DNA from: a virus
Direction: 5' to 3' (one strand)
Length of the DNA: 64,000 bases
IMG/VR virus record: IMGVR_UViG_3300013132_000023
Span: 64,001 to 128,000 of that record
The notes beneath the pieces were generated by a model. The model was not told where the DNA came from. It did no database searches and saw nothing but the letters and a program-made list of their open reading frames with translations. The translations under genes and the position numbers were made by a program. Below, piece after piece: positions 44,703 to 59,666 of the stretch (position 1 is the first letter of the stretch; each line of letters opens with the position of its first letter).

Positions 44703-45803
44703 TTATTCCTCTACTAGAACCTTTCCGTGTTCCTCTTTAACTTGTTCTAAAACAGATTTCCAAAGCTTGTCTTCAATGTCCTTGCCGTCTAAGAGAGCAA
44801 AGACATATCCAATTTCGGAATTCAAAGCATTAGCCTGTAGCCACAGAGCATAGTCCTTTCGAGGACGGTTCTCGCCTACCTCGGTAATCATACGACTCAA
44901 GCAGTCGCTTGCTCGCGTATACAGACCGTCTCGTAACCCTTGGACGTATGCACGAATGTCGTCGAAGTCACAAGCAATAGCCGCAGGCAACTGCTTAACC
45001 GTTACTCCGTACTCTCGACCACGAATCAGGTCAATGACTCCCTTGGGAGACAGATAGTTCAATAGACGATGGATACGTAGATACGTAGGGCTCTTGATCT
45101 TCACGCGAAGCCCATTTTCAAAGCGAGCAACATATCCTTCGGAGTTTTCTTCAAAAGGAATTTCGCTACGCAGGTCAATATTGTATCGCTTAGGGCGACG
45201 GAAGCCGCACATAGATGCGATTTGGTCTACGCGACGAGGATGCCACTCAACCCCATTGTGCTCGAACATTGCAAGCAAAACGAGTTCGCGTACACCGTTA
45301 TAATCTACGACGATGCGATTTTCGGGATAGATAATCTCAAACACGGGCGTACAGTCTACAGGTAAATGGTTTAACCAATATCTAGGACGCATGGTTTCTT
45401 CGTTACCAAACCATTCGTTCATAATCTTGGTACCATTAAGAGCTTGTTCCGATTCCATGCTACCCGGCGTGGCTAGTTTCCACTGGTTGTCACGCACGTA
45501 GCCAATGCCGCAGCTTCCGTCTGCCTTTTCATAGACTTCGACGGATTCCTTCCACGGTAGGTTAGCGATAGTAGTTTCAGGGCATTCTCCCAAGTTGAAA
45601 AACTTAGGAAACGGACGAGCTACGACAGTGCCGTCTGTTCGAAAGATGATACCACGAGCCTGACGATTAACTTCGTTCCACAGACCACTAATGTGAGTAT
45701 CTTGGGTGTACTTGAAGATAGTCAGGTCGCCACTTGACGAAGCCGATACTCGACCAGCTTCGACTTCTTTCCAAAGCTTGTTAAGTAGAATAGGGTCTTT
45801 CAT
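44703..45803 (-). CDS. T4 Rnl1-like RNA ligase
   Basis: ARG.IF, RPFPKFFN, motif I EKADGS, FEII.P.NRIVV.Y, EGYV, VKIKS..Y. Confidence 0.9.
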   Translation of the reverse strand: MKDPILLNKLWKEVEAGRVSASSSGDLTIFKYTQDTHISGLWNEVNRQARGIIFRTDGTVVARPFPKFFNLGECPETTIANLPWKESVEVYEKADGSCGIGYVRDNQWKLATPGSMESEQALNGTKIMNEWFGNEETMRPRYWLNHLPVDCTPVFEIIYPENRIVVDYNGVRELVLLAMFEHNGVEWHPRRVDQIASMCGFRRPKRYNIDLRSEIPFEENSEGYVARFENGLRVKIKSPTYLRIHRLLNYLSPKGVIDLIRGREYGVTVKQLPAAIACDFDDIRAYVQGLRDGLYTRASDCLSRMITEVGENRPRKDYALWLQANALNSEIGYVFALLDGKDIEDKLWKSVLEQVKEEHGKVLVEE

Positions 45804-46747: not shown

Positions 46748-46916
46748 TTAGTTCCTCACGCCACTTGTTAGCTATTTTGTTCGCTTCTTTAAGCGAATTA
46801 CAGGTTGCTCTATACAATACCCAATTGTTATCCAGTATATGTACGACCCTTACTTCGCAATCATAAACTTCTATTCTTAGTACGCTAGCAAGATTTTTTA
46901 TCATCCTATTTTTCAT
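46695..46916 (-). CDS. hypothetical protein
   Basis: 73-aa ORF, ATGA overlap with upstream gene. Confidence 0.5.
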   Translation of the reverse strand: MKNRMIKNLASVLRIEVYDCEVRVVHILDNNWVLYRATCNSLKEANKIANKWREELNEICLRRSTSRKKRNLD

Positions 46917-48160
46917 TGACTCCCCTTAAGGGCATGAACGCGAGCTTGCTCCATTTTCTGAGCGATCTTTTCACCGTTCTTTAAATGAGCAAACTGGTGT
47001 CCTTTGACTTGTCTAATGACTGCGGCGGCTTCAAGCAAACGATCCCCTTGTGGGTACGGATTGTTTGCGTGCAGCGGACCCCGGCCTCGTGCGTCAGCCT
47101 TTGCGGCCATGACTACGCGACGAGCTACCAAATCACCCTGTAAGGTTCCAAGTCGCCCTAGCAAGCGAACTTTTGTCGTTGCCTTTAGCTCTTCGAACTT
47201 GTGGATATTCAGATGTTCTCGCGACGCAAGGACGCCAATCTTACGATGCAGACTAGGAGTCCGCAAGCGATCACACATAGCATTAACCAAAGGTACTCCA
47301 AGAGCTTCATGATTGTAGTGGTGTGGGAGATTATGGTCGTCCGTAACTGCCTTTCCAAGGTCATGCACGAGAGCAGCAAACATCGTTTCGTCGTCTGCAC
47401 CCATGTCGCGAGCACGATCAATGACTTGCAACGTATGCACGTAAGCGTCACCTTCCGGATGATGCTTTTCTGGTTGAATGCGACCCTTTAGGGCGGCGAT
47501 TTCTGGGAACGTAATTTCTAAAGCACCCAGCCTATCGAGTGCTTCAAAGAAACAAGACGGTCGTTGCGTACGAAGGGCCTTTTCAAGCTCGCCCCATACG
47601 CGTTCGCCCGGTTCATTAGCTAATTCAGCCAATGCTGGCCGAGCAGCTTCAATCAATTCATCACTGATTGACATGTCTAATTGAGCAGCGAAACGAGCGG
47701 CACGCAAGATACGCACCGGATCTTCTCCGAAGTGGTTGCCAACTGGACGCAGCACCTTGTTTTGAAGATCTCTAATTCCGCCGTAAAGGTCAATGATTTC
47801 TTCGGTGAATGGATCTAAAGCCATTGCGTTAATCGTGAGGTCACGACGACGCAAATCTTCATCAAGTCCTACGTTATTCGTATCGCATTCGAAAGCATGG
47901 TAGCCCCCGCCAATCTTGCGTTCTTTTCTAGCAAGAGCGACTTCAATCCCGTTCACCAAGAATACAGGGAACTTTGCACCAACGACGCTATCGAAACCAG
48001 CCGCATGGAACTGGTTTTCCGATACGCCAATTACTACGATATCCACGTCCTTAGGATTACGCCCTAGGAGTAGGTCTCGTACGTAACCCCCGACAATATA
48101 GGGGCAACCCCCCATCGCTTTGATGCGATGGCAGAGTTCTAGATGCTTACGATGCTTCAT
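46913..48160 (-). CDS. cca: tRNA nucleotidyltransferase (CCA-adding) with HD domain
   Basis: VGGYVRD, DVD, EDL.RRDLTINAMA, EDPVRILR, VHDLGK. Confidence 0.92.
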   Translation of the reverse strand: MKHRKHLELCHRIKAMGGCPYIVGGYVRDLLLGRNPKDVDIVVIGVSENQFHAAGFDSVVGAKFPVFLVNGIEVALARKERKIGGGYHAFECDTNNVGLDEDLRRRDLTINAMALDPFTEEIIDLYGGIRDLQNKVLRPVGNHFGEDPVRILRAARFAAQLDMSISDELIEAARPALAELANEPGERVWGELEKALRTQRPSCFFEALDRLGALEITFPEIAALKGRIQPEKHHPEGDAYVHTLQVIDRARDMGADDETMFAALVHDLGKAVTDDHNLPHHYNHEALGVPLVNAMCDRLRTPSLHRKIGVLASREHLNIHKFEELKATTKVRLLGRLGTLQGDLVARRVVMAAKADARGRGPLHANNPYPQGDRLLEAAAVIRQVKGHQFAHLKNGEKIAQKMEQARVHALKGSQ

Positions 48161-48174: not shown

Positions 48175-48507
48175 CTATCGCAGGTCTTTTGTGTGCTTAA
48201 AACGGCTGCATTTTGTAACAAAAGCTACCAGGATCGGCACGTTTGAGGCAAAATCTTCCGGTTGCCAGAAACACATAGCCTTAACATGTTCTTGTTCTAG
48301 AATATGTTCTACAATTCCCGGCTGTTGACCTTGGTCTTCATGTTCGTCGTCTACGTGACTAGCAAATGGATCATCTGTACCTTGTAAATCCAAAATGTTT
48401 GGCATTACGGGGTGGACAATCTTTTCACTGGCCTTTTCTTGCACGCAAATACCGTATTGGCACTTCCAACACAGACTTTCTTCTGCCTTCGGCATTTCGC
48501 TATTCAT
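48175..48507 (-). CDS. hypothetical protein
   Basis: CWKC...C; acidic insert; start at ATG 48507 assumed. Confidence 0.55.
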   Translation of the reverse strand: MNSEMPKAEESLCWKCQYGICVQEKASEKIVHPVMPNILDLQGTDDPFASHVDDEHEDQGQQPGIVEHILEQEHVKAMCFWQPEDFASNVPILVAFVTKCSRFKHTKDLR

Positions 48508-48955
48508 TTGGGAAGATACTCGTGTTCGTCCACTCGTGTTCGTCCAAGTGTGGTTGGTAGTCGCTAATGTGACGTTCGATAACACTCAAGGGGACGTTAT
48601 GCTTGTTGCGACCAAGCAAGACATTAGCGTTCCAAGGACGTGGAGTGCAAATCATTTCGGTCTTGTAACCCAATTCACCAGCAAGCTTAAAATAGGGCTC
48701 CATTTCCCAATGCTTGATGAAAGTATTTGACACAATCACAAGCGGTACGCCATTTTCCATTTGCGTACGAACTTGCTCCTGATTCCAGGCGTGTGCCCTA
48801 GGGAGTTTCTTGGGATCAAACGAGTAGCCGTCTTGAGTCATGAAATACTGATCCGTTTCATGAACACTAGAACGAACACCGTCTCTTTGTCCCAGGTGAC
48901 GTGCAATCGTACTCTTACCGGAACCGCTTGGGCCTCTCAAAAGAATCAGTTTCAT
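48500..48955 (-). CDS. AAA_33 P-loop kinase (polynucleotide-kinase-like)
   Basis: LRGPSGSGKST, E.DQYF, AH.W.Q, VSNTF...WE, HNVP. Confidence 0.8.
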   Translation of the reverse strand: MKLILLRGPSGSGKSTIARHLGQRDGVRSSVHETDQYFMTQDGYSFDPKKLPRAHAWNQEQVRTQMENGVPLVIVSNTFIKHWEMEPYFKLAGELGYKTEMICTPRPWNANVLLGRNKHNVPLSVIERHISDYQPHLDEHEWTNTSIFPNE

Positions 48956-50063: not shown

Positions 50064-50273
50064 TTATAGAGTTTCATTTGGATCGATTGTGAAAATCGCC
50101 TCCGGGCACTTTAGCGATTCGCTATCGTCACCCTCGTAGTAACAAACGCCATAATCAAGGCTGTAACTAATGGTGGCATTTGGGTGCTTTTTAACGATCT
50201 TTTGAAGACGTTCTATCAGATTTGATATCTTGCCTTCAAAGTCATAGGCAGTGTATGTTTCTAAACGTCCCAT
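50064..50273 (-). CDS. hypothetical protein
   Basis: 69-aa ORF coupled to upstream ligase. Confidence 0.55.
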   Translation of the reverse strand: MGRLETYTAYDFEGKISNLIERLQKIVKKHPNATISYSLDYGVCYYEGDDSESLKCPEAIFTIDPNETL

Positions 50274-51388
50274 TAGTGATACTCCGTTCCGTCCTTGCGA
50301 GTTAGATAGTCGGGCGAAATGATCTTGAAAACCATACGCTTAGGGTGCGGGTCTAGTTCTCCCTTGCTCCACGTCAATTCGTCGTACATAGGACGAACGA
50401 CAATCCCTTCTCGAATGTGTCCATCTTCAAGGGTGGTGTTTCCTTGTGCCATTTCTAGCAGTGTTTCGTATGACAACATGCCACCACTCAAGAACGGCAC
50501 AAGCGGCAATCTTACCTTATTGCAAATGTGAGTTAGTGCATGATGATTGAGGTATTCACCATTGATAGCAATGTCGAATACACGATATCCCTTCTTGTTC
50601 TTGGCCCCGTAGTGCAGGTCTTGGACACCAGCACCATAGATTTCGCCAAAAACGATTAGTGAGTTCAGTGGACAACCAGTTCCGCCCTCTGGATTTTCAA
50701 TTGCATCGATAGCCCACTCAAGTAGCTTATCAAGTGCTTCGGCGTGTAGCTCGAAAGGAAGACCGTAGACTCCACAGTCGTTAGGGTCACGTTGCGTACG
50801 ATGTGTACCTACAACCTTTTCAAGGTAATCACTCATGCCTCCGTTTTCAGGATCAGGAGTACGTACCCAGCCAACACGGCTATTTGTACCGTGGAGCTTT
50901 TCAGTGACAACCAACGGTATGCTGTAATTAAGAGCTTCTGGGAAGTTACGAAGATTCTGCATATCCGTGTAATGATGGAACAACGGATGCTCTCTTCGCA
51001 TTTGACCAGCAGACATACCTAAGGGCGGCGGGGGCGGTTCGTACTTTTCGATACCGTAGTGAGCAGCTAGGCTCGCACCCGGTTCGGCTCCGCTGTCGTT
51101 AGGAACGAGGAAACCAAAGCTTGCAATACTACGCAAACGAGCGGCCCGGACGCGTCCCATGTCACTGTCCTTCTTAAAGGACAGGTATTGAGTCACGCCC
51201 CACTTATCGGCCCAATCGCGGGGAACCATAACTTCCGGAGGAATGTGTACTACAATGTCTCCAACCTTGTAGTTACCTTTTCCAGACACAATGTCCCAGC
51301 CGCTTACGCGGCAGATTTCAAGACGATCAGCATTGGGATGCGGATTGATAGCGGTCACAACGACCGGAGTGATGATTAGTTCGCTCAT
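50273..51388 (-). CDS. RNA ligase, DRB0094/Rnl5-like family
   Basis: N-terminal HPNADRLE OB domain, TEKLHGTN, FGEIYG, FDI, REGIVVRP, FKIISPDYL. Confidence 0.88.
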   Translation of the reverse strand: MSELIITPVVVTAINPHPNADRLEICRVSGWDIVSGKGNYKVGDIVVHIPPEVMVPRDWADKWGVTQYLSFKKDSDMGRVRAARLRSIASFGFLVPNDSGAEPGASLAAHYGIEKYEPPPPPLGMSAGQMRREHPLFHHYTDMQNLRNFPEALNYSIPLVVTEKLHGTNSRVGWVRTPDPENGGMSDYLEKVVGTHRTQRDPNDCGVYGLPFELHAEALDKLLEWAIDAIENPEGGTGCPLNSLIVFGEIYGAGVQDLHYGAKNKKGYRVFDIAINGEYLNHHALTHICNKVRLPLVPFLSGGMLSYETLLEMAQGNTTLEDGHIREGIVVRPMYDELTWSKGELDPHPKRMVFKIISPDYLTRKDGTEYH

Positions 51389-51906
51389 AGCTTTACAATT
51401 CTGCGTTCGTGGAGTCTAAGTCCTTCAACGTATTTATTTACAAAGTCGCGTTGTTCTGGCGTACACGGTGACCCCCGAGGGTCGTTGTGAGTAGTCATGA
51501 TTGATCGATAACGTCTCTTAACGAACAACGGAATCTTGCGGTCTAGTCGCATCGTTGATCTGCGGTATGAACGTCTATCTTCTCGTGGTCGTCTTTTCCA
51601 GAAGTGCTTAGCTACTTCAATTGAAGAATAAAAGTCGCCATATGCACTTGAATCCATTGTTTCGCTGTGACCGATGGGAATATCACAATCGTAGAAAATG
51701 ATTCCCCTCTCGTATCCAGTTTCATCTTGAGGGGCGTCGTAGAACACCCACTTAGATTCGTGTATATCAGTTTCAGGACTTCTTCGATAAATGACGTACG
51801 AGTAGCCAGTAATCTTGGTTTCGATCAATACGCCACCAAGAACCATATGCCAAATCGGAGTCTCTAAAGGACAGATTTCTTGGCTTGTGTTGTACTTGGT
51901 CTGCAT
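51385..51906 (-). CDS. hypothetical protein
   Basis: 173-aa ORF after consensus promoter. Confidence 0.6.
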   Translation of the reverse strand: MQTKYNTSQEICPLETPIWHMVLGGVLIETKITGYSYVIYRRSPETDIHESKWVFYDAPQDETGYERGIIFYDCDIPIGHSETMDSSAYGDFYSSIEVAKHFWKRRPREDRRSYRRSTMRLDRKIPLFVKRRYRSIMTTHNDPRGSPCTPEQRDFVNKYVEGLRLHERRIVKL

Positions 51907-51914
51907 GTCTCTCT

Positions 51915-51943
51915 ATAATAACACAAGAAGCCGCTCTTGTCAA
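51915..51943 (-). promoter_or_regulatory. sigma70-like promoter
   Basis: TTGACA-N17-TATTAT, 8 nt before ATG 51906. Confidence 0.7.
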
Positions 51944-51991
51944 GATCACCAACAGAGAATTTGCGTTTTACGTTCATTGTTTTGTTTGTAT

Positions 51992-52068
51992 TGGTGCCCA
52001 GGGCGGGAGTCGAACCCGCAAAATCTACATTCTAAGCGTAGCACGTTTGCCAGTTACGTCACCTGGGC
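51992..52068 (-). tRNA. tRNA-Leu(TAG), short variable loop
   Basis: GCCCAGG/CCTGGGC acceptor, loop CTTAGAA, GGTTCGACTCC, encoded CCA. Confidence 0.9.
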
Positions 52069-52077
52069 ATAGTATGT

Positions 52078-52106
52078 ATTGTATCACATTGCATCAAGAC
52101 TGTCAA
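52078..52106 (-). promoter_or_regulatory. sigma70-like promoter
   Basis: TTGACA-N17-TACAAT just upstream of tRNA-Leu(TAG). Confidence 0.75.
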
Positions 52107-52426
52107 GTCAAGGTCTCGGCAAGTTTGTTTGCGGCTAGCCAGCCGCGAGTAGTTGGCTCAAAGCGAGCAAAAGGACTGAACATGTACTTGTTTTCTGCAA
52201 AATGAGGATCAATTGACACTTGTCTCTTTAATGCAGCCATTGTTACGTTACGGTACAATAGGATTTTCCTGCCTTCGTAAGTTGTACAGTTTGGATACCG
52301 TATTTCTACAACCAAATTACCATAAATTTCAACAAATCGTATGATTTCGTAATGGTATGGATGTGGTTGAGAATTAGAAGACTGTCGAGAATCGTATGAA
52401 CTCGACGACATTTTGAACATTCCCAT
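52103..52426 (-). CDS. hypothetical protein
   Basis: YP.C..YEG.KIL...DPHF....SP.ARF.PT..GW phage family pattern. Confidence 0.65.
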   Translation of the reverse strand: MGMFKMSSSSYDSRQSSNSQPHPYHYEIIRFVEIYGNLVVEIRYPNCTTYEGRKILLYRNVTMAALKRQVSIDPHFAENKYMFSPFARFEPTTRGWLAANKLAETLT

Positions 52427-52435
52427 GTTTTTATT

Positions 52436-52521
52436 TGGTAGCTTCGGTGGGAGTCGAACCCACACGCTGATTAGGCACCTGATTTTGAGTCAAGCGGGTC
52501 TGCCAATTCCCCCACGAAGCC
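52436..52521 (-). tRNA. tRNA-Leu(CAA)
   Basis: GGCTTCG/CGAAGCT, loop CTCAAAA, long variable arm, CCA. Confidence 0.92.
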
Positions 52522-52740
52522 ATTCTGTTCAAGCAATTCTTCGGTCCCATCAGGATGCTCCAAATAGGCAAACCAAATTTTGCATCCCATCCTATTGAAG
52601 TGTTCTCTATTCCTGCGATGTGCTTCACGAGCTTCTGCTTCTGTTTTGCGAATCATCGGGTCTCCAGTATCGCGAGACGTGAACGTGTTACGGTGAATAC
52701 CCCACTTTACAGTCCATACTTTGTTCGGATCAACCTTCAA
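52471..52740 (-). CDS. hypothetical protein, C-terminus runs into tRNA-Leu(CAA)
   Basis: TTG start after GAGGT; stop codon inside tRNA. Confidence 0.5.
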   Translation of the reverse strand: MKVDPNKVWTVKWGIHRNTFTSRDTGDPMIRKTEAEAREAHRRNREHFNRMGCKIWFAYLEHPDGTEELLEQNGFVGELADPLDSKSGA

Positions 52741-52768
52741 TCATACCTCGCACATTAGGGTTTGTCAA
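52740..52768 (-). promoter_or_regulatory. sigma70-like promoter
   Basis: TTGACA-N17-TATGAT. Confidence 0.65.
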
Positions 52769-53238
52769 CTCTTGGGCTCGTATTTACAGATGATTGCATC
52801 TGGAAAATACGTCTCTATGATCTTGGAATAAATATCCCAATTGCCGCCACCCAGACCACAGCCCATTTTGTATGGAAAGTAGAATTGTCCATTCCAATAC
52901 TTGGATTCTGGATTTCTCCTTCGTGAATTTACAATTCGTTCAAATGCAGTCACGGTCGCGTCGTAGCTCGTCATGCGTTTCGTCCTTGAAACGTCGCCCT
53001 GGCCAAAAACGTTGGCAATTCTGATGGTTGGCGAAGCATTGAACATCCATACCCTGCCAATCAATTGCTCTTGACTAGTATCATATATTTGACAGTATTC
53101 ACGGTACTTGATTTCAAGTTCGGGCCATTTAAGAGCGAAGCTCCTAGCGATGCCGCCCCCCATGATGCCTCGACAATTGACTTGATGAAATAGAATGCCC
53201 TCTTCGAGGGCGAGCATGTCTTGTTCAATAATCTTCAT
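52765..53238 (-). CDS. macro domain (ADP-ribose-processing) protein
   Basis: HQVNC.G.MGGGIA, ANVFGQ, FPYKMGCGLGGGNW. Confidence 0.85.
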   Translation of the reverse strand: MKIIEQDMLALEEGILFHQVNCRGIMGGGIARSFALKWPELEIKYREYCQIYDTSQEQLIGRVWMFNASPTIRIANVFGQGDVSRTKRMTSYDATVTAFERIVNSRRRNPESKYWNGQFYFPYKMGCGLGGGNWDIYSKIIETYFPDAIICKYEPKS

Positions 53239-53245
53239 TGTATTG

Positions 53246-53334
53246 TGGTCCGCTCGGCAGGATTCGAACCTGCGATGGTGATTACTCACTCCAGATTAAA
53301 AGTCTGGCCCCTTCGGCCTCTCGGACACGAGCGG
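53246..53334 (-). tRNA. tRNA-Lys(TTT) with long variable arm
   Basis: CCGCTCG/CGAGCGG, CCAGA-CTTTTAA-TCTGG, 17-nt variable region, CCA. Confidence 0.85.
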
Positions 53335-53354
53335 CGGTTACTCATTGTACACTA

Positions 53355-53383
53355 AGTATAACACGCCGTAGATGTGCTGTCAA
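53355..53383 (-). promoter_or_regulatory. sigma70-like promoter
   Basis: TTGACA-N17-TATACT. Confidence 0.75.
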
Positions 53384-53384
53384 G

Positions 53385-53460
53385 TGGTACTTCCACCAGG
53401 ATTCGAACCTGGACGATTCGCTTAGAAGGCGAAGATGCTGGTCCGTTACATCATGGAAGC
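53385..53460 (-). tRNA. tRNA-Arg(TCT)
   Basis: TTCGC-CTTCTAA-GCGAA, canonical T arm, CCA. Confidence 0.92.
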
Positions 53461-53554
53461 ATATTATTCATTATCGATTACTCTTTGAGCTTCGTCTGCA
53501 AGAGATTGAAGAAAGGCAATATTATTCTTGGCTTTTTCAAGAGAGACTAGTTGT

Positions 53555-53643
53555 TGGTGCATCCGCCAGGATTCGAACCTGGGTTGGGTTTTCACCGTCC
53601 GATTAAGAGTCGGATGCCTTCGGCCAACTCGGCACACGGATGC
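53555..53643 (-). tRNA. tRNA-Lys(CTT) with long variable arm
   Basis: GCATCCG/CGGATGC, TCCGA-CTCTTAA-TCGGA, 15-nt variable region, CCA. Confidence 0.85.
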
Positions 53644-53648
53644 GTGAA

Positions 53649-53725
53649 TGGTCGGGCGTGTTGGAATTGAACCAACCTAATGTCCTCCTTCCAAGGGAGG
53701 CGACCCTCCTTGAGTCCGACGCCCG
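53649..53725 (-). tRNA. tRNA-Pro(TGG)
   Basis: CGGGCGT/ACGCCCG, CCTCC-CTTGGAA-GGAGG, CCA. Confidence 0.88.
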
Positions 53726-53733
53726 TTTTATGT

Positions 53734-53809
53734 TGGTCCGCAGCGATGGTATCGAACCATCTGTCTCTCGGTTATCAGCCGAGTGCATATACCTTTATGC
53801 TTCCTGCGG
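53734..53809 (-). tRNA. tRNA-Ile(GAT)
   Basis: CTCGG-CTGATAA-CCGAG; G:G mismatch at 7:66; CCA. Confidence 0.85.
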
Positions 53810-53838
53810 AATGTTTTAATAGTTCCAAGATTCTTCTT

Positions 53839-54435
53839 CTAGCTTCTTGGTAACGTTGGCGGTGCAACGTATCGCACAAGAAACCGCTTTGATTTTGCAC
53901 GAGCAATGTACTTCTTGGGTAGCTTAAAATCACCGTTGTTACGAATTACATTAAGCATGATTGCACGCAAACGTTGCTCCGGTTCATCGTACCGACTTCC
54001 CCATTCACCGGCTTGTTGAAGAAGATGATGAATTGATTCATCGTCATTTGGATCCATAACACAACATTCAAACGCCGATTCCATGAGTGTCATGTTGCGT
54101 TCTCCAAAGTACTTCTCAACACGAGGCCATATGTCGTAGTCTTTTGTTACAATTTCATAAACAGAGCACTTGTTCTCGATATTCACGAGAGATACAAAAG
54201 CCGCACCAAGAGCACACACCTGACATGTAGTCTTCTTGTTCTTCTTGAAGAAATCCTTGAACGATCCTGCGATCGTCTCATCATATGCACTCATGTCATT
54301 GCGTAACCATGAGTTTAGTTCAGGAGAATCCACTTGGACATACGTTCCAGGCGTTGCCTTGTAACGATTAAAACGAATCTGAGCCAGAACATCCTGGGCG
54401 ATCTTCACACACATCCGACGATTTCGACGAGTCAT
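53839..54435 (-). CDS. hypothetical protein
   Basis: 198 aa; IA.DVLAQ, CQVCALGA.F, E.AFE, RL.AIM.N.I.N.G.F pattern. Confidence 0.65.
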   Translation of the reverse strand: MTRRNRRMCVKIAQDVLAQIRFNRYKATPGTYVQVDSPELNSWLRNDMSAYDETIAGSFKDFFKKNKKTTCQVCALGAAFVSLVNIENKCSVYEIVTKDYDIWPRVEKYFGERNMTLMESAFECCVMDPNDDESIHHLLQQAGEWGSRYDEPEQRLRAIMLNVIRNNGDFKLPKKYIARAKSKRFLVRYVAPPTLPRS

Positions 54436-54462
54436 ATTTGTTGTTATTGTTGTTGTTATTGT

Positions 54463-54549
54463 TGGCGGAAGGTTAGGGAATCGAACCCTAGAGGCTTTTT
54501 ACACCCAGCCGTTTTCAAGACGGTTTCCTCGACCTACCGGACACCTTCC
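54463..54549 (-). tRNA. tRNA-Ser(TGA)
   Basis: GGAAGGT/ACCTTCC, loop CTTGAAA, long arm, G73, CCA. Confidence 0.9.
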
Positions 54550-55001
54550 AAATTTTTCACATCTGCTGGAAAGAGATACTTAGTGAGAACTTCACCAATC
54601 CCACGATCCAGAATAACCGCGAGCAGCTTGTTATGGTCTCCCTCAAACGGGCCGCTCATGAGTTGATCATACCACTTATACCAGTGTTCGTCAAGAACAA
54701 TCTCGACTGGCTGTCCTGGAACGTGCTCGAAATAGTCGGCATCGGTTTTAGGGGCAGCACGCACCTGAATAGTAATTCCGCTTTTACGAGAAGACTGGTC
54801 TTTTACCGGGACGATCTTGTCAATCGGCGGCAGTATGCCAATCCCAAGTGCGTCGTTAATGCGTTCAAACAAAGCCTCAAGAGGCGTTAACCCCTTTGTC
54901 ATTTCTTCTTTCGTGCGTTTGAATCGCTTGGCTCCAGTTACGGTCTTGTAGCTTTCGAGACAAGTGATTTGCTTTGCTTGTTCTTGCGTAATGTCGTTCA
55001 T
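54534..55001 (-). CDS. hypothetical protein sharing the TG..RF..KE domain of 49556..49921
   Basis: ITCLESYKTVTGAKRFKRTKEEMTKGLTPLEALFE; stop inside tRNA-Ser(TGA). Confidence 0.6.
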   Translation of the reverse strand: MNDITQEQAKQITCLESYKTVTGAKRFKRTKEEMTKGLTPLEALFERINDALGIGILPPIDKIVPVKDQSSRKSGITIQVRAAPKTDADYFEHVPGQPVEIVLDEHWYKWYDQLMSGPFEGDHNKLLAVILDRGIGEVLTKYLFPADVKNLEGVR

Positions 55002-55579
55002 TAAAAACTCCATCCCAAATTGATCATATACATTTCGCAATCCAACTCAGGATTGATGATGAAAATGTCTACGTCTTGATTGAAGAAGTGGCGTCGATAT
55101 TCGACTCCCACAAAGATGTTGTCTGTAAAGAACCAAGACGTACCAAAATTGACATATGGTGCGTAAGCTTGACCACGATCTTGCGGAGTGCCAGCGTAAC
55201 TCAAATCTACCTGAGTTTCAAGTTCAAACGAAGACATACCGCCGCTTGCCGACACTTGCCACGAATCCGTGACCATCCAGTTCTTTCGCAAACCCAAATA
55301 CACTTCTTGAACAGTGGTCTTTGTGCTGTCTACGCGACGATTGATATACACATCGTCATTTGACACGTCCTGGCTTTGCATAAAACCGAACTCAGGTCCG
55401 AAGCCATCTTTTCCAGCTAGGTCAATACTGCCACCCAGCACGTTCGTTTGCTGGTCAGTTGATTCCCAATCGCCAGAATCTTGAAAATCGCGAACGCCAA
55501 CCCCGACCTTCGCGTTAGGGGCCATGCGGCAGCTAGTGACAAGCGTAGCAAAAGTCAGAACAGAGAGTAAGTGCTTCAT
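55001..55579 (-). CDS. outer-membrane beta-barrel protein
   Basis: signal peptide ending LVTSC, amphipathic strands, VGVEYR, terminal INLGWSF beta signal. Confidence 0.75.
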   Translation of the reverse strand: MKHLLSVLTFATLVTSCRMAPNAKVGVGVRDFQDSGDWESTDQQTNVLGGSIDLAGKDGFGPEFGFMQSQDVSNDDVYINRRVDSTKTTVQEVYLGLRKNWMVTDSWQVSASGGMSSFELETQVDLSYAGTPQDRGQAYAPYVNFGTSWFFTDNIFVGVEYRRHFFNQDVDIFIINPELDCEMYMINLGWSF

Positions 55580-55586
55580 ATGATCT

Positions 55587-55614
55587 ATTGTACCACACGT
55601 TTGTTCGTTGTCAA
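55587..55614 (-). promoter_or_regulatory. sigma70-like promoter, near-leaderless
   Basis: TTGACA-N16-TACAAT, 7 nt before ATG 55579. Confidence 0.7.
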
Positions 55615-55623
55615 GAAAAAGTT

Positions 55624-55715
55624 TGGCGGTAGGTGTAGGATTTGAACCTACGGAGGTTTTAAAGCCCCGCTTCTTTAGCAAAGAAGTGCCTTAGGCCAGA
55701 CTCAGCCAACCTACC
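55624..55715 (-). tRNA. tRNA-Ser(GCT)
   Basis: GGTAGGT/ACCTACC, CTTCT-TTGCTAA-AGAAG, long arm, CCA. Confidence 0.92.
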
Positions 55716-55720
55716 AATTA

Positions 55721-55795
55721 TGGAGCCCCGTGAAGGATTCGAACCTGGACAAAGAGATTCAAAATCTCTGGTGCTAGCCGTTACACTATACCGGA
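55721..55795 (-). pseudogene. chimeric tRNA-Gln(TTG) with a foreign 3' end
   Basis: 5' TCCGGTA and T-stem CCAGG do not pair with 3' CCTTC-ACGGGGC-TCCA. Confidence 0.75.
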
Positions 55796-56269
55796 AATAA
55801 TCAATTGTTTCTGTGTAGGCCATACGTATTCCATTGTAGGGTCTTCGATCCAATTAAATTGACCGTAATAGACAGGATCTTTGCGAAGCAAGTTTGCACG
55901 ATGTGAAGCATGAAGCTCAGACAATCCAATCCAAGGCGGCATTTCAATGTTTGAAGAAATTGGTCCTGGTCGCATGGTGTTCTCGTATCCGCGATTAATC
56001 CATTCCGCAATAGCTTCATTCATATACGAACGTAACGCTTCATTATATCCACGCCACATAACTGCTGCCGGGTGATTTAACCATCCTTTTTTCAAAGGAC
56101 TGTTTTTCATAAAACCTTGATCAATACGCCATTGACGTTCAGTCAAAGCCCATTCATCGCCATTTACAATCAACAGTTGAAATGCTTCAACACGTTGTTT
56201 GCCGAGACGACGATAATCTAAACACGAAAGAGACTTAGTAAAGTCTGAAAAAGGAAGAAATGTTTGCAT
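55781..56269 (-). CDS. pyrimidine-dimer glycosylase-like (MSMEG_6728 family) protein
   Basis: MQTFLP, LD..RLGKQRVEA, NHPA..MW.GY, HASHR.NLLRKD, Y.WP. Confidence 0.85.
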   Translation of the reverse strand: MQTFLPFSDFTKSLSCLDYRRLGKQRVEAFQLLIVNGDEWALTERQWRIDQGFMKNSPLKKGWLNHPAAVMWRGYNEALRSYMNEAIAEWINRGYENTMRPGPISSNIEMPPWIGLSELHASHRANLLRKDPVYYGQFNWIEDPTMEYVWPTQKQLIISGIV

Positions 56270-56270
56270 A

Positions 56271-56483
56271 TTACATCTTGGTGATGCAACGATCAACACC
56301 CGTCAAAAACAAGGCAAGAATAATCACTCCTAGAATGATTGCCACAGGAATCCAAAGCGGGGCGAGCACCCACAGCCAAGGCCAGTTAATAATGTTGCCA
56401 AGCTTGAGGCCGATGAAAAGAATGGCCAATAGGCCAGTAAAGCCAACACCGCCCGAGCGAACTTTGATTTTTTGATTAGACAT
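56271..56483 (-). CDS. small membrane protein
   Basis: GGVGFTGLL.ILFI.LKL...I.W.W.WVLAPLW. Confidence 0.75.
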   Translation of the reverse strand: MSNQKIKVRSGGVGFTGLLAILFIGLKLGNIINWPWLWVLAPLWIPVAIILGVIILALFLTGVDRCITKM

Positions 56484-56528
56484 TGGATTGTGTTTAGGTT
56501 GAGGTTCAAGTTTAGTAGTAACAACCAC

Positions 56529-56556
56529 AGTATATCATGTCTCCTGGAGTTGTCAA
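56529..56556 (-). promoter_or_regulatory. sigma70-like promoter
   Basis: TTGACA-N16-TATACT. Confidence 0.7.
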
Positions 56557-56570
56557 GTGAAAATTAACGT

Positions 56571-56645
56571 TGGCGGGCCTACGGGGAATCGAACCCCGAT
56601 CTTCTATTCGACAGACAGATATTCTAGCCTTTGAACTATAGGCCC
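56571..56645 (-). tRNA. tRNA-Asp(GTC)
   Basis: GGGCCTA/TAGGCCC, loop CTGTCGA, G73, CCA. Confidence 0.9.
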
Positions 56646-56652
56646 ATTGTTT

Positions 56653-56727
56653 TGGTGCCTCCCCCAGGTAACGCTCCTGAGCCTCCAGTATTTCAAGCTG
56701 GAATGCAGACTTCTACACCAGGGAGGC
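56653..56727 (-). tRNA. tRNA-Phe(GAA), atypical T loop
   Basis: GCCTCCC/GGGAGGC, loop TTGAAAT, T loop AGCGTTA, CCA. Confidence 0.78.
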
Positions 56728-56801
56728 GGATCTTCTAACAGGATAATGTTTCCGAGTCGCACGTCTCTGTGCTTCTGATGCTTTCGCCATGATTTTGTTT
56801 T

Positions 56802-56877
56802 TGGGGTGCCTAACGAGTATCGATCTCGTACCTGGAGATTCACATTCTCCCGTGCAGGCCACTACACTATAGACACC
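56802..56877 (-). tRNA. tRNA-His(GTG)
   Basis: G-1:C73, GGAGA-ATGTGAA-TCTCC, CCA. Confidence 0.88.
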
Positions 56878-56884
56878 GCTATGA

Positions 56885-56962
56885 TGGTAGCCACAGCGGG
56901 ATTCGAACCCAGCACTTTACAGATTTTAAGTCTGTTGACTCTGCCGATTGGTCTACGTGGCC
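56885..56962 (-). tRNA. tRNA-Leu(TAA), short variable loop
   Basis: GGCCACG/TGTGGCT, ACAGA-CTTAAAA-TCTGT, CCA. Confidence 0.85.
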
Positions 56963-56988
56963 ATAAGTTGTTTGTTTTCAAAGCTGTA

Positions 56989-57006
56989 CGCTATTCGCGA
57001 ATAGCG
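56989..57006. repeat. 18-bp perfect palindrome
   Basis: CGCTATTCGCGAATAGCG in tRNA spacer. Confidence 0.9.
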
Positions 57007-57013
57007 AATGTAT

Positions 57014-57105
57014 TGGTCCGCAGGGTGGGATTCGAACCCACGTATTTCGCATATCAGGCGATGACTGATCATAAATCAGGGGGCTTACCGCTAACCGACC
57101 TGCGG
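57014..57105 (-). tRNA. tRNA-Ile(TAT) with long variable arm
   Basis: CCGCAGG/CCTGCGG, loop TTTATGA, ~22-nt variable region with TCGC/GCGA stem, CCA. Confidence 0.8.
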
Positions 57106-57135
57106 AAAAAGTTTGCCCCCAGGACAAAGGAAGTC

Positions 57136-57270
57136 CTAATTGTACCTGATACGATCTTCACCTTCTTCTTCGAACCATTCTTCGGTCTCGAAGTCCTCGG
57201 CGACGACGCGGTAATCATACACTGCGTCCTCGTCCGTGTCAAGTGTTGTTTCGAAAGATTCTTCTTCCAT
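57136..57270 (-). CDS. 44-aa highly acidic protein
   Basis: MEEESFETTLDTDEDAVYDYRVVAEDFETEEWFEEEGEDRIRYN between two tRNAs. Confidence 0.55.
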   Translation of the reverse strand: MEEESFETTLDTDEDAVYDYRVVAEDFETEEWFEEEGEDRIRYN

Positions 57271-57275
57271 TGTAT

Positions 57276-57368
57276 TGGCTCCGAGAGTAGGACTCGAACC
57301 TACGGTGGGGGAATTTCTCCCCTTCGCATTAACAGTGCGATGCGTGCTACCAACTCCGCAACCTCGGA
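57276..57368 (-). tRNA. tRNA-Asn(GTT) with long variable arm
   Basis: TCCGAGG/TCTCGGA, TCGCA-CTGTTAA-TGCGA, GGGGA/TCCCC extra stem, G73, CCA. Confidence 0.85.
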
Positions 57369-57381
57369 ACGTTGTTGTTGC

Positions 57382-57454
57382 TTGCGAGACTAGGATTCGC
57401 ACCTAGGTTTCTCCGGTCAGAGCGGAGCGTACTAGGCTGCTGTACGATCCCGCA
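57382..57454 (-). tRNA. tRNA-Gln(CTG), CCA not encoded
   Basis: TGCGGGA/TCTCGCA, CTCCG-CTCTGAC-CGGAG, T loop TGCGAAT. Confidence 0.82.
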
Positions 57455-57461
57455 GTAAAGC

Positions 57462-57761
57462 TTATTCGTATACCGTGATAGTCTTTTGCCGAGCAATCAC
57501 TTCGCGGTAACCATTGAATTCGGCACCATGATACGACTGATACCAGCCGTCAACGCGAATCAGGACTTCTGTGTCGCCATTCTTGAAACGCCACACGGTC
57601 CAGTAATCAGACCCTTGGTCTTGGCCTCCGTAATGAGCAACACACTTTTCATCAAAACTCCATCCTTCCGGAATGGGCGAATCAAAATCATCGTCCAAAT
57701 AATTGGACAAAAGCTTCTCAGCATTTTTATCTAACCAATCACGTAGTTCTGCACTGATCAT
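57462..57761 (-). CDS. hypothetical protein
   Basis: YGG.DQG..YW.V..F......GWY.SY.G phage family pattern. Confidence 0.65.
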   Translation of the reverse strand: MISAELRDWLDKNAEKLLSNYLDDDFDSPIPEGWSFDEKCVAHYGGQDQGSDYWTVWRFKNGDTEVLIRVDGWYQSYHGAEFNGYREVIARQKTITVYE

Positions 57762-58609
57762 AGTTTTTTCCAGATATCGGATTCAAAAAACCGCTCGAAA
57801 ACCACATTGTCAAACTGCTTGACTATGTTCCAGTTGTCGATAGCGTACTCCCTAAGCGGACCATCGTCAAGAGTCGTACAGACTTTTTCGAGGGCACGCA
57901 TGTATGCAATACGATATGAGAATCGTGTTCCCTTAATGCGATTTGGAATGATAAATCTTTCCAACGCAATGACGTACGTTTCTTCACGAACGCATGCTTG
58001 TTTTAGTTCATCAGAAGCAGCGTACCATAGATCTATGTCGTACGCTGCCTTGGACATGTCTTTCTTTAGCTGAAAGTACGACGGCGTACCACCAACAATG
58101 ATCTTGTGAATGTCTTCGTGATTAAACACGCGGACAACTGCATCTTTGATAAATTCCTCATTTGTCATGTCTCCAAATGGATTTCTATGAGGAAAGTACT
58201 TTCTGGTTTCCGCCATGCGGCGACTAATGAATTCGCGATCTTCATCCGTGAAATCATGATCCAGAATTTGGTACTGAATCATGTGTTTCGTGAAATTAAA
58301 GTCACGATACATATGCGAACGTTTGATTGCAGCAAGGCCACGAGAACTACATACTTTGACTAAAAGTCTACCATCAGCTAGAGCAGTCTTGTCTGTTCCA
58401 TACTTCGATTCGATTTCATGATTAAGGAAGAAAGCATCGTTATGTAATTCGATGTTTCCAAACTTCCATGAAAAGACCTTGCGATCACATGTCTTTTGAA
58501 GCAAATTTTCAGCTTCAAAGTGAGACACGATCACATCCCAATCCTTAGGATTCTTGGGACGGTGTTCTGGATGCCAGATAGAAGTAGCTCGTGAACCAAT
58601 TAGCAGCAT
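57758..58609 (-). CDS. phage protein with nucleotidyltransferase-like N-terminus
   Basis: LIGSRA...DWD, IKRSH, HEDIH, EE.YV.ALER, KVCTT. Confidence 0.65.
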   Translation of the reverse strand: MLLIGSRATSIWHPEHRPKNPKDWDVIVSHFEAENLLQKTCDRKVFSWKFGNIELHNDAFFLNHEIESKYGTDKTALADGRLLVKVCSSRGLAAIKRSHMYRDFNFTKHMIQYQILDHDFTDEDREFISRRMAETRKYFPHRNPFGDMTNEEFIKDAVVRVFNHEDIHKIIVGGTPSYFQLKKDMSKAAYDIDLWYAASDELKQACVREETYVIALERFIIPNRIKGTRFSYRIAYMRALEKVCTTLDDGPLREYAIDNWNIVKQFDNVVFERFFESDIWKKL

Positions 58610-58617
58610 ATTGTTTG

Positions 58618-58688
58618 CAGGGGCATAAGGAATCGAACCCTAGTCTATCGCTTTGGAGGCGAGTATATTACCACTATACTATACCCCT
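58618..58688 (-). tRNA. tRNA-Trp(CCA), CCA tail not encoded
   Basis: AGGGGTA/TGCCCCT, loop CTCCAAA, G73. Confidence 0.85.
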
Positions 58689-58694
58689 ATGTTT

Positions 58695-58768
58695 TGGTAC
58701 CCATTGAGGGAATCGAACCCACGCAGCTACCTTGTAGGGATAGTGTTCTGCCATTAAACTAAACGGGT
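58695..58768 (-). tRNA. tRNA-Val(TAC), C at position 33
   Basis: ACCCGTT/AATGGGT, CTATC-CCTACAA-GGTAG, CCA. Confidence 0.8.
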
Positions 58769-58771
58769 ATA

Positions 58772-59465: not shown

Positions 59466-59471
59466 GTTGTT

Positions 59472-59500: not shown

Positions 59501-59507
59501 GGAAAAA

Positions 59508-59583: not shown

Positions 59584-59586
59584 CTA

Positions 59587-59661: not shown

Positions 59662-59666
59662 TTGAA

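Follow-up and report, generated by a model that had tools for sequence, protein, structure and literature searches.

The closest described relatives of the genes treated here belong to the conflict between phages and bacterial nucleases that destroy transfer RNAs (tRNAs). AriB, the Toprim nuclease of the defence system PARIS, is reported to cut Escherichia coli Lys(UUU), Thr(UGU), Asn(GUU) and Thr(CGU) between positions 40 and 41 (PMC12409363), and the T5 versions of Lys(UUU), Thr(UGU) and Asn(GUU) together neutralise PARIS (PMC11464382, PMC12409363). In an AlphaFold 3 (AF3) model put forward by its authors, the AriB dimer bridges the cut site and U16-U17 of the D loop, and more distal contacts are deduced as well (PMC12409363). 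P2 Old is described as cutting both strands of anticodon stems that hold paired CNG triplets and A37, the latter being invariant in its substrates; it prefers Thr(UGU), also cuts Lys(UUU) and Asn(GUU), and leaves damage that phage ligases cannot mend (PMC12445682). PtuAB of Retron-Eco7 cuts E. coli tRNA-Tyr in the variable loop, at U47/C48, and a longer variable loop is required for the tRNA-Tyr of phage SP15 to defeat it (PMC12673091); in this one instance, the variable region is established as a determinant. The toxin MenT3, finally, which together with PtuAB exemplifies enzymes that read or cut long arms, is reported to prefer Ser tRNAs. We have analysed a tRNA gene array in a stretch of 64,000 nucleotides (nt; hereafter the window), bases 64001-128000 of the virus record IMGVR_UViG_3300013132_000023, in which six genes, those for Lys(UUU), Lys(CUU), Asn(GUU), Ile(UAU), Leu(UAG) and Leu(UAA), have variable regions of the kind opposite to that expected from their anticodons. 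By textbook, a long variable arm belongs in bacteria to Leu, Ser and Tyr tRNAs; in the window it is present in the first four of these genes and missing from both Leu genes.

Our results indicate that this swap of arms is a widespread phage design, found repeatedly in viral contigs and in cultured phages, and that the added arms are structures maintained by selection. As to what the swap is for, we put at roughly one half the probability that the six focal genes encode replacement tRNAs, cognate in charging, whose shape was altered to withstand defence nucleases that attack tRNAs.

Structure of the swapped tRNA genes

The source record is an uncultured virus of 137,177 base pairs (bp), about 87% complete by estimate. 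ARAGORN predicts 26 tRNA genes in the complete record, of which 24 lie in the window, all of them on the minus strand (51992-60466); 20 of the 24 reach the gathering score (29 bits) of the Rfam tRNA model RF00005. All six focal tRNAs match this model at 48.0-62.3 bits over model positions 1-71, the extra arms being treated as insertions. The genes, as called by ARAGORN, and their arms are the following, together with two ordinary genes of the same array.

53246..53334, minus strand: tRNA-Lys(UUU), 89 nt, Rfam 55.3 bits, widened D loop, A73
53274-53290, minus strand: extra arm of Lys(UUU), 17 nt, A + 4-bp stem GUGA/UCAC + GUAA loop + CAUC tail
53555..53643, minus strand: tRNA-Lys(CUU), 89 nt, Rfam 52.7 bits, A73
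53583-53597, minus strand: extra arm of Lys(CUU), 15 nt, 3-bp stem GGU/ACC + GAAA loop + CAAC tail
57276..57368, minus strand: tRNA-Asn(GUU), 93 nt, Rfam 50.3 bits, G73, U1-A72, C2-G71
57304-57322, minus strand: extra arm of Asn(GUU), 19 nt, 5-bp stem GGGGA/UCCCC + GAAAU loop + 4-nt tail
57014..57105, minus strand: tRNA-Ile(UAU), 92 nt, Rfam 48.4 bits, G37, A73, normal 4-bp D stem
57042-57063, minus strand: extra arm of Ile(UAU), 22 nt, 4-bp stem UCGC/GCGA + 7-nt loop CUGAUAU + tail AAUAC
51992..52068, minus strand: tRNA-Leu(UAG), 77 nt, Rfam 62.3 bits, 5-nt variable loop AUUUU, A73
56885..56962, minus strand: tRNA-Leu(UAA), 78 nt, Rfam 48 bits, 6-nt variable loop, A73
52436..52521, minus strand: tRNA-Leu(CAA), 86 nt, ordinary long-arm Leu design (internal control)
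53734..53809, minus strand: tRNA-Ile(GAU), 76 nt, ordinary short-arm twin with the same acceptor stem CCGCAGG as Ile(UAU)

A first-pass annotation of this DNA had noticed arms of 15-22 nt on the two Lys, the Ile and the Asn tRNAs, loops of about 5 nt on Leu(UAG) and Leu(UAA), and class-II-like D loops in the Lys pair. These observations are confirmed: the four arms measure 17, 15, 22 and 19 nt, respectively, and are all stem-loops, the Leu loops measure 5 and 6 nt, and GGCCGAAGG lies in the widened D loop of both Lys genes. A D arm with a 3-bp stem and a loop of 10-11 nt is found in Lys(UUU), Lys(CUU) and Asn(GUU), not in Ile(UAU) (4-bp stem, 7-nt loop), and the D arm of Leu(UAA) is likewise of the class II type (3 bp + 11 nt). 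The anticodon arm of Lys(UUU) reads CCAGA-CUUUUAA-UCUGG. The six genes have a 7-nt anticodon loop and, in the ARAGORN drawings, standard 7-bp acceptor and 5-bp T stems, the irregularities being a T stem of 4 bp plus a mismatch in Leu(UAA) and an anticodon stem of 4 bp plus C-U (C27-U43) in Ile(UAU). Thus, a variable region of at least 10 nt that forms a stem-loop, as in class II tRNAs, is present in Lys(UUU), Lys(CUU), Ile(UAU) and Asn(GUU), and the combination of Leu anticodon, variable loop of at most 6 nt and A73 that characterises type I tRNA-Leu is present in Leu(UAG) and Leu(UAA). Elsewhere in the window, ordinary long arms are found on Leu(CAA), two Ser genes and Tyr, and the remaining tRNAs have variable regions of 4-7 nt. 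The long arm retained by Leu(CAA), like the distinct type of the Ile(UAU) arm, had gone unmentioned in the first-pass annotation. Beyond the long-arm genes, ARAGORN predicts no Lys or Asn tRNA gene in this phage. Near-identical contigs are present in lake-water metagenome runs, none of those listed being of RNA. DNA contigs from two other such runs show 0 differences across both Lys genes, Ile(UAU) and Asn(GUU), so that the arms are not an assembly artefact.

A recurrent arm module in phage Lys and Asn tRNAs

Viral contigs were scanned for a Lys(UUU) anticodon loop followed 20-32 nt on by a standard T arm, which rendered at least 113 loci with at least 102 tRNA-Lys genes of 82 nt or more (95 UUU and 7 CUU), 89 of them distinct according to ARAGORN. 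Proportions given here and below for the viral scans refer to the matches listed. Among these 89 genes, 71 have an arm that is a simple stem-loop, 8 a stem with a mismatch and 10 no stem. The arms share a plan of 0-1 unpaired nt, a stem of 3-5 bp, a tetraloop and a tail of 3-4 nt; the loop is GAAA, GCAA or GUAA in 35 of the 71 simply parsed arms and the 3-4 nt tail, typically CAUC, is present in 59, and the tail together with the first and last letters of the stem is nearly invariant. A D loop of 9-11 nt is found in 75/86 long-arm Lys(UUU) genes vs 23/47 short-arm phage Lys(UUU) genes.

An alignment of 23 long-arm Lys genes was made with the 2 window genes and 21 outside rows picked for a clean ARAGORN arm, a choice that biases the percentage paired and not the variety of pair types. 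In it, every cell of the arm helix (100%) is paired, and each of the 4 pairs has changes on both of its sides; for the structure as a whole, pairing amounts to 95.7% of cells vs 72.3% in shuffled alignments, none of 500 shuffles reaching the observed value, and slid controls were also nowhere near it. The extra arms are therefore selected structures with covarying stems, beyond chance hairpins.

A similar scan for Asn(GUU) detected at least 109 distinct long-arm genes in at least 123 loci. In these loci, long arms are also carried, among the matches listed, by 9/28 Thr(UGU), 10/51 Met, 5/11 Ile(UAU), 4/36 Ile(GAU), 4/17 Cys and 3/29 Lys(UUU) genes, and by none of 29 Ala, 35 Arg and 35 Gly genes; about half of the Leu genes are short-arm. 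Judging from their sequences, the Lys and Asn arms represent one module, in which the stem is short, the loop is in most cases a GNRA tetraloop and the tail of 3-4 nt ends in C, and which is accompanied by a widened D loop. When arm and anticodon are removed, the nearest neighbours of long-arm Lys, Asn and Thr genes are one another, plus Tyr and Ser, while long-arm Met genes are closest to short-arm Met and short-arm Leu genes to long-arm Leu. Descent from tRNA-Tyr was considered and set aside, as these neighbours indicate a shared class-II-type body for which common descent and convergence are not separable.

Occurrence in phages, cells and relatives

The same Lys pattern, applied to one genome per species of 185,579 prokaryote species, rendered 12 long-arm Lys genes among the 120 loci listed, the other loci being chance matches or intron-bearing archaeal genes. 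Several of these 12 genes sit in dense arrays of the phage type. One of them, in a metagenome-assembled genome of the Saprospiraceae, is found next to a long Asn gene and a pair of short Leu genes, and an isolate of Thalassovita has three ordinary Lys(UUU) genes on its main contig and one long-arm Lys gene on a contig of 44 kb. The design is thus phage-biased, with at least 102 long-arm Lys genes in 113 viral loci vs 12 in the 120 prokaryote loci listed.

It is also found in cultured phages, since members of the T5-like, rV5-like and Cellulophaga groups combine a long-arm Asn or Thr with short-arm Leu genes. The T5-like coliphage KookSpook has an 87-nt Thr(UGU), an 83-nt Asn and a 77-nt Leu(UAG), at positions where T5 has textbook arms on Thr and Leu(UAG); Cellulophaga phage phi4:1 has an 89-nt Asn, marked in its annotation as a pseudo tRNA-OTHER, and a 76-nt Leu(UAG); and in Cronobacter phage GAP31 an 89-nt Asn is accompanied by two Leu genes of the short kind. 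The Thr(UGU) tRNA of E. coli has a textbook arm, as do the remaining E. coli tRNAs of the swapped kinds. In view of the loci listed in the prokaryote-species scan, the Thalassovita isolate and the E. coli phages with the same swaps, the possibility that such arms are standard in host tRNAs, named as refuting in the first-pass annotation, is rejected. As a side observation, the long-arm Asn(GUU) gene of GAP31 (locus 5994-6082) has G1-C72, G2-C71 and G73, a Ser-like acceptor set, and by these letters would be the class member most at risk of charging by seryl-tRNA synthetase (SerRS).

Close relatives of the window were sought in several ways. The tRNA region gave no match to 50,697 phage records by megablast, a locus search with the DUF7275 open reading frame (ORF) found no relative, and tblastn with this ORF and RIIA detected only distant phages with less than 40% identity. 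Eight viral contigs, in contrast to these, encode a CCA-adding enzyme 59-65% identical to that of the window and carry upstream of it a tRNA array in the same order; they represent 7 distinct loci, as L480 and L487 list identical tRNA sets. The arm states recorded in the window and in these relatives are as follows.

Asn: long in the window and L480, short in L482
Lys(CUU): long in the window and L485, short in L480 and L482
Ile(UAU): long in the window, short in L482 and L484
Leu(UAG): short in the window, long in all others
Leu(UAA): short in the window, L480 and L482, long in L484
Leu(CAA): long in the window, L483 and L485, short in L482

L482 has a long Thr(UGU) instead. This lability of the arm state among relatives, with isotype-specific acceptor stems that are kept, fits a recurrent conflict. 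The first-pass annotation had held that single cases occur in other phages and that four together are striking; it understated how frequent each swap is, but the full set of four long and two short arms is not matched in any of the 7 distinct related loci.

Codon meaning and amino acid identity

The meaning of the codons was examined at columns at least 60% conserved in GDP-mannose dehydratase, compared with 81 homologues, and GMP reductase, compared with 136. AAR codons fall on Lys in 9/9 columns, AAY on Asn in 9/11, AUY on Ile in 11/14 (the rest being Val) and the six Leu codons on Leu in 26/27; the two genes contain no AUA codon, which genome-wide makes up 5.4 per thousand codons. Codon use is standard. 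The acceptor stems are conserved by isotype: Asn has G73, U1-A72 and C2-G71 in the window and its relatives, Ile(UAU) genes have CCGC...GCGG and A73, the same as Ile(GAU), with CCGCAGG shared by the Ile pair of the window, and A73 is present in both Lys and both short Leu genes. We infer from these features that the focal tRNAs carry the amino acid predicted by the anticodon. Mischarging with Leu, which had been proposed in the first-pass annotation, is left without support by the standard codons at conserved columns, by acceptor stems and discriminators that match the anticodon, and by the fact that these are the sole Lys and Asn tRNAs of the phage.

Short-arm Leu genes keep a Leu-type class-II D arm and have A73 in 22/26 cases; together with their clustering with long-arm Leu bodies, this makes them look like Leu tRNAs that lost the arm. 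The leucyl-tRNA synthetases (LeuRS) of Streptomyces coelicolor and human mitochondria are reported to charge short-arm Leu tRNAs (PMC6614811), and by analogy charging of the phage ones is plausible.

The arm of tRNA-Ile(UAU)

The Ile(UAU) arm is of another kind than the Lys and Asn arms, resembling an anticodon arm. A viral-contig scan for Ile(UAU) detected at least 101 long-arm genes (66 distinct) in at least 120 loci. Among the matches listed, GAU is present in 41 of 45 distinct long-arm Ile(UAU) arms, and AGAU in 36, as against 17/85 Lys, 8/111 Asn, 1/13 Thr and 1/42 Tyr arms with GAU. The loops are mostly of 7 nt, of the form YAGAUUR, on covarying stems of 3-5 bp. In an alignment of 41 rows, the three inner pairs have 0-2 unpaired cells and one pair shows five pair types, and the loop columns for GAU hold the G, the A and the U in 39, 39 and 37 rows, respectively. 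The window arm can be aligned with the 40 others and has the features by which we define this family (stem of 3-5 bp, loop of 5-7 nt holding GAU, tail of 5-6 nt), with a U before GAU where most have A. Its loop, CUGAUAU, is identical in 6 of 7 letters to the anticodon loop CUGAUAA of the phage's own Ile(GAU), and the anticodon arm of the major tRNA-Ile is of the same size as a 5-bp stem whose 7-nt loop holds GAU at its positions 3-5. The four long-arm Ile(GAU) genes have plain arms with a tetraloop or a 6-nt loop like the Lys module, without the 7-nt GAU loop. The Ile(UAU) GAU arm is carried in culture by Synechococcus phage S-SRM01, in which the gene is unannotated, and by Sinorhizobium phage Phosso. 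Mimicry of the own anticodon was also looked for in the arms of long-arm Met, Thr and Cys genes, with no consistent pattern.

The isoleucyl-tRNA synthetase (IleRS) of E. coli is reported to charge a UAU tRNA inefficiently, and in Mycoplasma mobile a change in the enzyme was needed (PMC3575796). From this rejection of the UAU anticodon comes the proposal that the arm gives the host IleRS the missing GAU signal. It may alternatively be a decoy, or the relic of a duplication kept for another reason.

Some further observations concern these genes. Two long-arm Met(CAU) genes (viral contigs L122 and L180), with initiator-like CGCGG acceptor starts, hold in their arm loops CAUAA, the 3' part of the Met anticodon loop, which is missing from other long-arm Met genes. 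The Ile(UAU) genes of the window lineage have no A37 (G37 in the window, C37 in L482, U37 in L484), so that t6A37 cannot form in them; A37 is also missing in 5/17 short-arm phage Ile(UAU) genes. The anticodon arms of Ile(UAU) (CCUGA-UUUAUGA-UCAGU) and of Thr(UGU) at 59508-59583, minus strand (CCUGA-UUUGUAA-UCAGG), differ at 3 positions, which hints at anticodon switching between isoacceptors inside the array.

Proposed resistance to tRNA-cutting defences

The phage isoacceptors that have most often gained an arm are known prey of anticodon-stem nucleases, and in the window Lys(UUU) and Asn(GUU) match substrates of AriB and Old. Both Lys genes of the window keep U36AAUC40, the paired CNG triplets and A37, and have no substitution at the cleavage or recognition site; the window Asn has CGC/GCG.

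Functional data exist for one member of the module. In a screen for rescue from Old, 245 coliphage tRNAs were tested, and Thr_TGT_9 (MZ501074_8), an 87-nt Thr(UGU) with a GGA-GUAA-UCC arm that went unremarked there, was enriched 5.3- and 6.9-fold; the same sheet gives 4.9-22.9-fold for short-arm phage Thr(UGU) tRNAs and 0.01-0.2 for most other tRNAs (PMC12445682, supplementary Table 2, sheet OLD_analysis). MZ501074 is phage HildyBeyeler (Bas33), a Tequintavirus; its Thr(UGU) differs by eye in three letters from that of KookSpook, and the latter matches the window Lys(UUU) with 81.5% identity over 65 nt. It follows from the screen that E. coli makes a long-arm Thr tRNA of this module and uses it as Thr, and that this tRNA stands up to Old. 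Its anticodon arm is near that of the host, with a CUGA/UCAG stem core and an identical U36AAUCA41, and putting the host anticodon arm into a short-arm phage Thr tRNA is reported to abolish protection from Old (PMC12445682). Given rescue in spite of a host-like anticodon arm, the determinant likely lies outside the latter, in the extra arm or the widened D loop. With regard to PARIS, Bas33 is described as escaping once a Lys tRNA is supplied, and as needing only that (PMC12409363).

We infer on these grounds nuclease resistance, and which part of the tRNA would confer it. The variable regions would have been rebuilt in an arms race with host enzymes that destroy tRNAs. Lys(UUU), Lys(CUU) and Asn(GUU) would share an add-on module by which decoding of AAR and AAY continues when the host tRNAs are cut; Leu(UAG) and Leu(UAA) would, conversely, have shed the arm because a long one is read or cut by other enzymes of defence; and the Ile(UAU) arm would be a separate device, a graft of the IleRS anticodon signal onto a tRNA with an anticodon of its own that most bacterial IleRS reject. 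The first-pass annotation had proposed shape camouflage against anticodon nucleases. Camouflage by shape is favoured by the indirect evidence, and the likely enemies have to be widened, as they are at least equally Toprim nucleases of the anticodon stem (AriB, Old) and readers of the variable loop. A comparison of target motifs points the same way. Where the arm takes the place of stem substitutions, these motifs would be expected to survive more frequently in long-arm genes, and they do: among the matches listed, the paired CNG is kept in 61/87 long-arm vs 25/56 short-arm phage genes for Lys(UUU), in 6/7 vs 21/43 for Lys(CUU) and in 62/111 vs 14/41 for Asn. Being confounded by kinship and by the fixed anticodon-loop pattern used for the long-arm sets, this comparison carries little weight.

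Several points weigh against this explanation. The Bas33 data come from a pooled over-expression screen, in which rescue by competition is possible, and the determinant in the Bas33 Thr tRNA could be the widened D loop and not the arm. The short-arm Thr(UGU) of the window keeps the full AriB and Old motifs, which means that proofing of the phage against these two E. coli enzymes is not uniform. The resistant Lys, Thr and Asn tRNAs of T5 have ordinary arms, so an arm is not needed for resistance, and long arms also occur on Met, Cys and Ile(GAU), which are not reported targets of AriB. We know of no enzyme reading or cutting long arms that acts on Leu, and of no published nuclease that targets Lys(CUU), Ile(UAU), Leu(UAG) or Leu(UAA). 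The graft proposed for Ile(UAU) is speculative, because the loop of the arm is far from where IleRS holds the anticodon, and it has no structural support. The E. coli LeuRS is reported not to have charged the short-arm Leu(CAA) of S. coelicolor (PMC6614811), so that charging of short-arm Leu tRNAs is not a given.

A last point concerns frequency. In the one sample not picked for arms, which was anchored on Arg(UCU), most loci have 1-4 tRNAs and 17 are arrays of at least 5, too few for a rate; in those 17 arrays only 1/7 Asn, 0/6 Lys, 1/9 Thr and 3/21 Leu genes are swapped. Although the arm swap is thus abundant in absolute numbers, only a minority of genes have it, and the window, with four long and two short arms, is an extreme case.

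Genome context

The array lies close to genes for RNA repair and processing.

44703..45803, minus strand: T4 Rnl1-type RNA ligase (tRNA repair); Pfam PF09511 2.7e-19, phrog_562 1.7e-62
46913..48160, minus strand: CCA-adding tRNA nucleotidyltransferase; Pfam PF01743, PF12627 and HD, phrog_2244 3e-109
48500..48955, minus strand: polynucleotide-kinase-like P-loop kinase; Pfam AAA_33, phrog_2071 and phrog_505
50273..51388, minus strand: second RNA ligase, of the PF09414 type; Pfam, phrog_968 2.4e-42
52765..53289, minus strand: phosphatase-family ORF among the tRNA genes; phrog_335 6.5e-29, no Pfam match; the called frame overlaps the 3' part of Lys(UUU)

The T4 pair of polynucleotide kinase (Pnk) and Rnl1 mends tRNA-Lys cut by PrrC. 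In the window, Rnl1, Pnk, the second ligase and the CCA enzyme form a kit 600 to 7,300 bases from the array, and such a tRNA-repair kit at this place means that the lineage evidently meets tRNA damage.

Two candidates were rejected. As to a private synthetase, none was found, and a sub-threshold tRNA_anti-codon OB match of a 319-aa protein (37627-38586, minus strand) best resembles the 3'-5' exoribonuclease YhaM (E 4e-6). As to a phage-borne PARIS- or Septu-like system, a 412-aa ATPase of the ABC/SMC type (39671-40909, minus strand) matches the PtuA, AriA, LmuB and DndD models of PADLOC only over its first ca. 50 residues, the Walker-A end; its role is probably in recombination, and no partner nuclease was found for it.

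Other features of the region can be mentioned. The 3' CCA is not encoded in only 2 of the 26 tRNA genes, Gln(CUG) at 57382-57454 and Trp(CCA) at 58617-58688, both on the minus strand, and sigma-70-like sites (TTGACA, 17 nt, TATACT/TACAAT) were seen by eye upstream of several tRNA groups on the minus strand of 51900-60600. Genes for peptide deformylase and methionine aminopeptidase beside PhoH (35617-37025, minus strand) represent a further investment in translation. Positions 1-17000 of the window (plus strand) contain a long run of glycosyltransferases, methyltransferases and GDP-sugar enzymes.

Alternative explanations

A division of labour among the arms, which would extend the main explanation, is rather unlikely. 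The Ile(UAU) arm would be a second anticodon arm that shows GAU to the host IleRS, allowing AUA to be decoded without lysidine; independently of it, the GNRA arms of Lys, Asn and Thr would shield these tRNAs sterically from Toprim nucleases. The variable region would then be a general, modular site controlling who touches the tRNA.

Somewhat less probable is that all the extra arms, beyond that of Ile(UAU), are handles for charging or for another positive interaction, with a synthetase, a modification enzyme, EF-Tu, the ribosome or a phage protein, by which the use of the tRNA is tuned. The sequence-specific Ile(UAU) loop, with GAU in 41/45 of the arms listed, suggests a role in recognition and not one of mere bulk, docking is a classic function of GNRA loops, and the tail and the terminal stem letters of the Lys arm are nearly invariant. 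However, LysRS and AsnRS mainly read the anticodon and N73, so that no handle is needed; the window ORFs scanned (62 with Pfam, 21 with PHROGs) include no synthetase and no partner gene was found; and the flips of the arm between close relatives fit a conflict better than a fixed handle.

The arms could also be a mark of self, if the phage or a partner element, in shutting down its host, degraded host tRNAs with a nuclease that spares the phage Lys, Asn and Leu tRNAs. A swap that goes both ways, with a long arm where that of the host is short and a short one where it is long, would agree with this, as would the RNA-processing genes that the array adjoins and the Toprim/OLD-like ORF T5.076 (37279-37797) annotated inside the tRNA region of the T5 record. 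It is made improbable by the fact that no match to a tRNA-cutting nuclease family was found in the window, where the PADLOC matches of the 412-aa ATPase stop short as described, and by the swap of only some isoacceptors, Leu(CAA) and Thr(UGU) being host-like.

Still more doubtful is that the arms are neutral or decaying hairpin insertions and deletions in redundant tRNA genes, some of them on the way to pseudogenes. The long-arm Asn of a Cellulophaga phage is marked tRNA-OTHER/pseudo in GenBank, 10 of the 89 distinct long-arm Lys genes listed lack an arm stem, and Ile(UAU) has G37 and the C27-U43 mismatch; on the other side stand the covariation of the stems, the conservation of loop and tail across very different acceptor stems, the role of the window genes as sole Lys and Asn tRNAs and the function of the Bas33 long-arm Thr in the screen.

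Deliberate mistranslation of AAR, AAY and AUA by A73 long-arm tRNAs charged with Leu or Tyr and a G73 Asn charged with Ser is very improbable, even if the long-arm nev-tRNAs of nematodes are reported to be charged with Leu (PMC3333845), the Lys arm has a Tyr-like tail of 3-4 nt and the nearest neighbours of Tyr are long-arm Lys and Asn, since codons are standard at the conserved columns (AUA being absent from the two genes), the Asn has C2-G71 vs the G2-C71 of Ser tRNAs and a 4-nt tail vs 1 nt in the phage's Ser tRNAs, and mischarging would be ruinous with both Lys isoacceptors converted and no normal copy left.

Significance

In the literature within reach, which did not extend to subscription journals and bioRxiv supplements, no description was found of phage tRNAs for Lys, Asn, Thr or Ile that bear a long arm or of short-arm phage Leu tRNAs, and the word "variable" is absent from the main text of both 2025 Toprim papers (PMC12409363, PMC12445682). 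The design is apparently undescribed, and would be a structural variant among phage counter-defence tRNAs. The means so far described by which phage tRNAs defeat tRNA-cutting immunity are point substitutions and one Tyr variable loop. If resistance is indeed what the arms provide, gain or loss of a whole arm would be a second common escape route, would explain many tRNA genes annotated as pseudo or "other", would predict the face of the tRNA that these nucleases must grip, and would offer nuclease-proof tRNAs for phage engineering and orthogonal translation. The design bears, too, on the tolerance of LysRS, AsnRS, ThrRS and IleRS for a class-II body and of LeuRS for a class-I body. If it is true that the GAU-loop arm feeds IleRS, it would add a hitherto undescribed kind to the identity elements of tRNAs.

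Comparison with known systems

The T5-type counter-defence tRNAs, with Lys(UUU), Thr(UGU) and Asn(GUU) acting against AriB and Thr(UGU) against Old, share with those of the window their isoacceptors and their place in a phage array; they take over from host tRNAs that Toprim nucleases have destroyed, as is proposed here (PMC11464382, PMC12409363, PMC12445682). Their resistance is described as due to substitutions in the anticodon stem and D loop and a shortened stem, with normal arms, whereas the Lys tRNAs of the window keep the target motifs and carry an arm. With the SP15 tRNA-Tyr and PtuAB, the likeness is that the length of the variable region decides the outcome, the nuclease cutting the variable loop itself (PMC12673091). 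Tyr, however, is already of the long-arm class in bacteria, and the window adds an arm to tRNAs that never had one and removes it from Leu.

The nematode nev-tRNAs, for Gly(CCC) and Ile(UAU), combine a long arm with anticodons of the short-arm class, among them the same Ile(UAU); they are described as eukaryotic, with a Leu-type body and Leu charging, unlike the window genes, which go with a standard code and have an acceptor stem and a discriminator that agree with the anticodon. Bacterial allo-tRNAs and selC-like tRNAs also have a long arm outside Leu, Ser and Tyr, but they are defined by acceptor/T stems of 8/4 or 9/3 (PMC7609411), and the six window genes, all of them 7/5, are therefore not allo-tRNAs.

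The type I tRNA-Leu of S. coelicolor and human mitochondria resembles the short-arm Leu genes in being armless and chargeable by a LeuRS (PMC6614811); it is cellular and has a co-adapted LeuRS, whereas the phage genes keep the class-II D arm and A73. In Mycoplasma mobile, tRNA-Ile(UAU) is reported to read AUA with an unmodified UAU anticodon and presents IleRS with the same problem (PMC3575796). The solution there was a change in IleRS (Arg865), whereas in the window, where no IleRS was found, it is the tRNA that bears a second hairpin with GAU.

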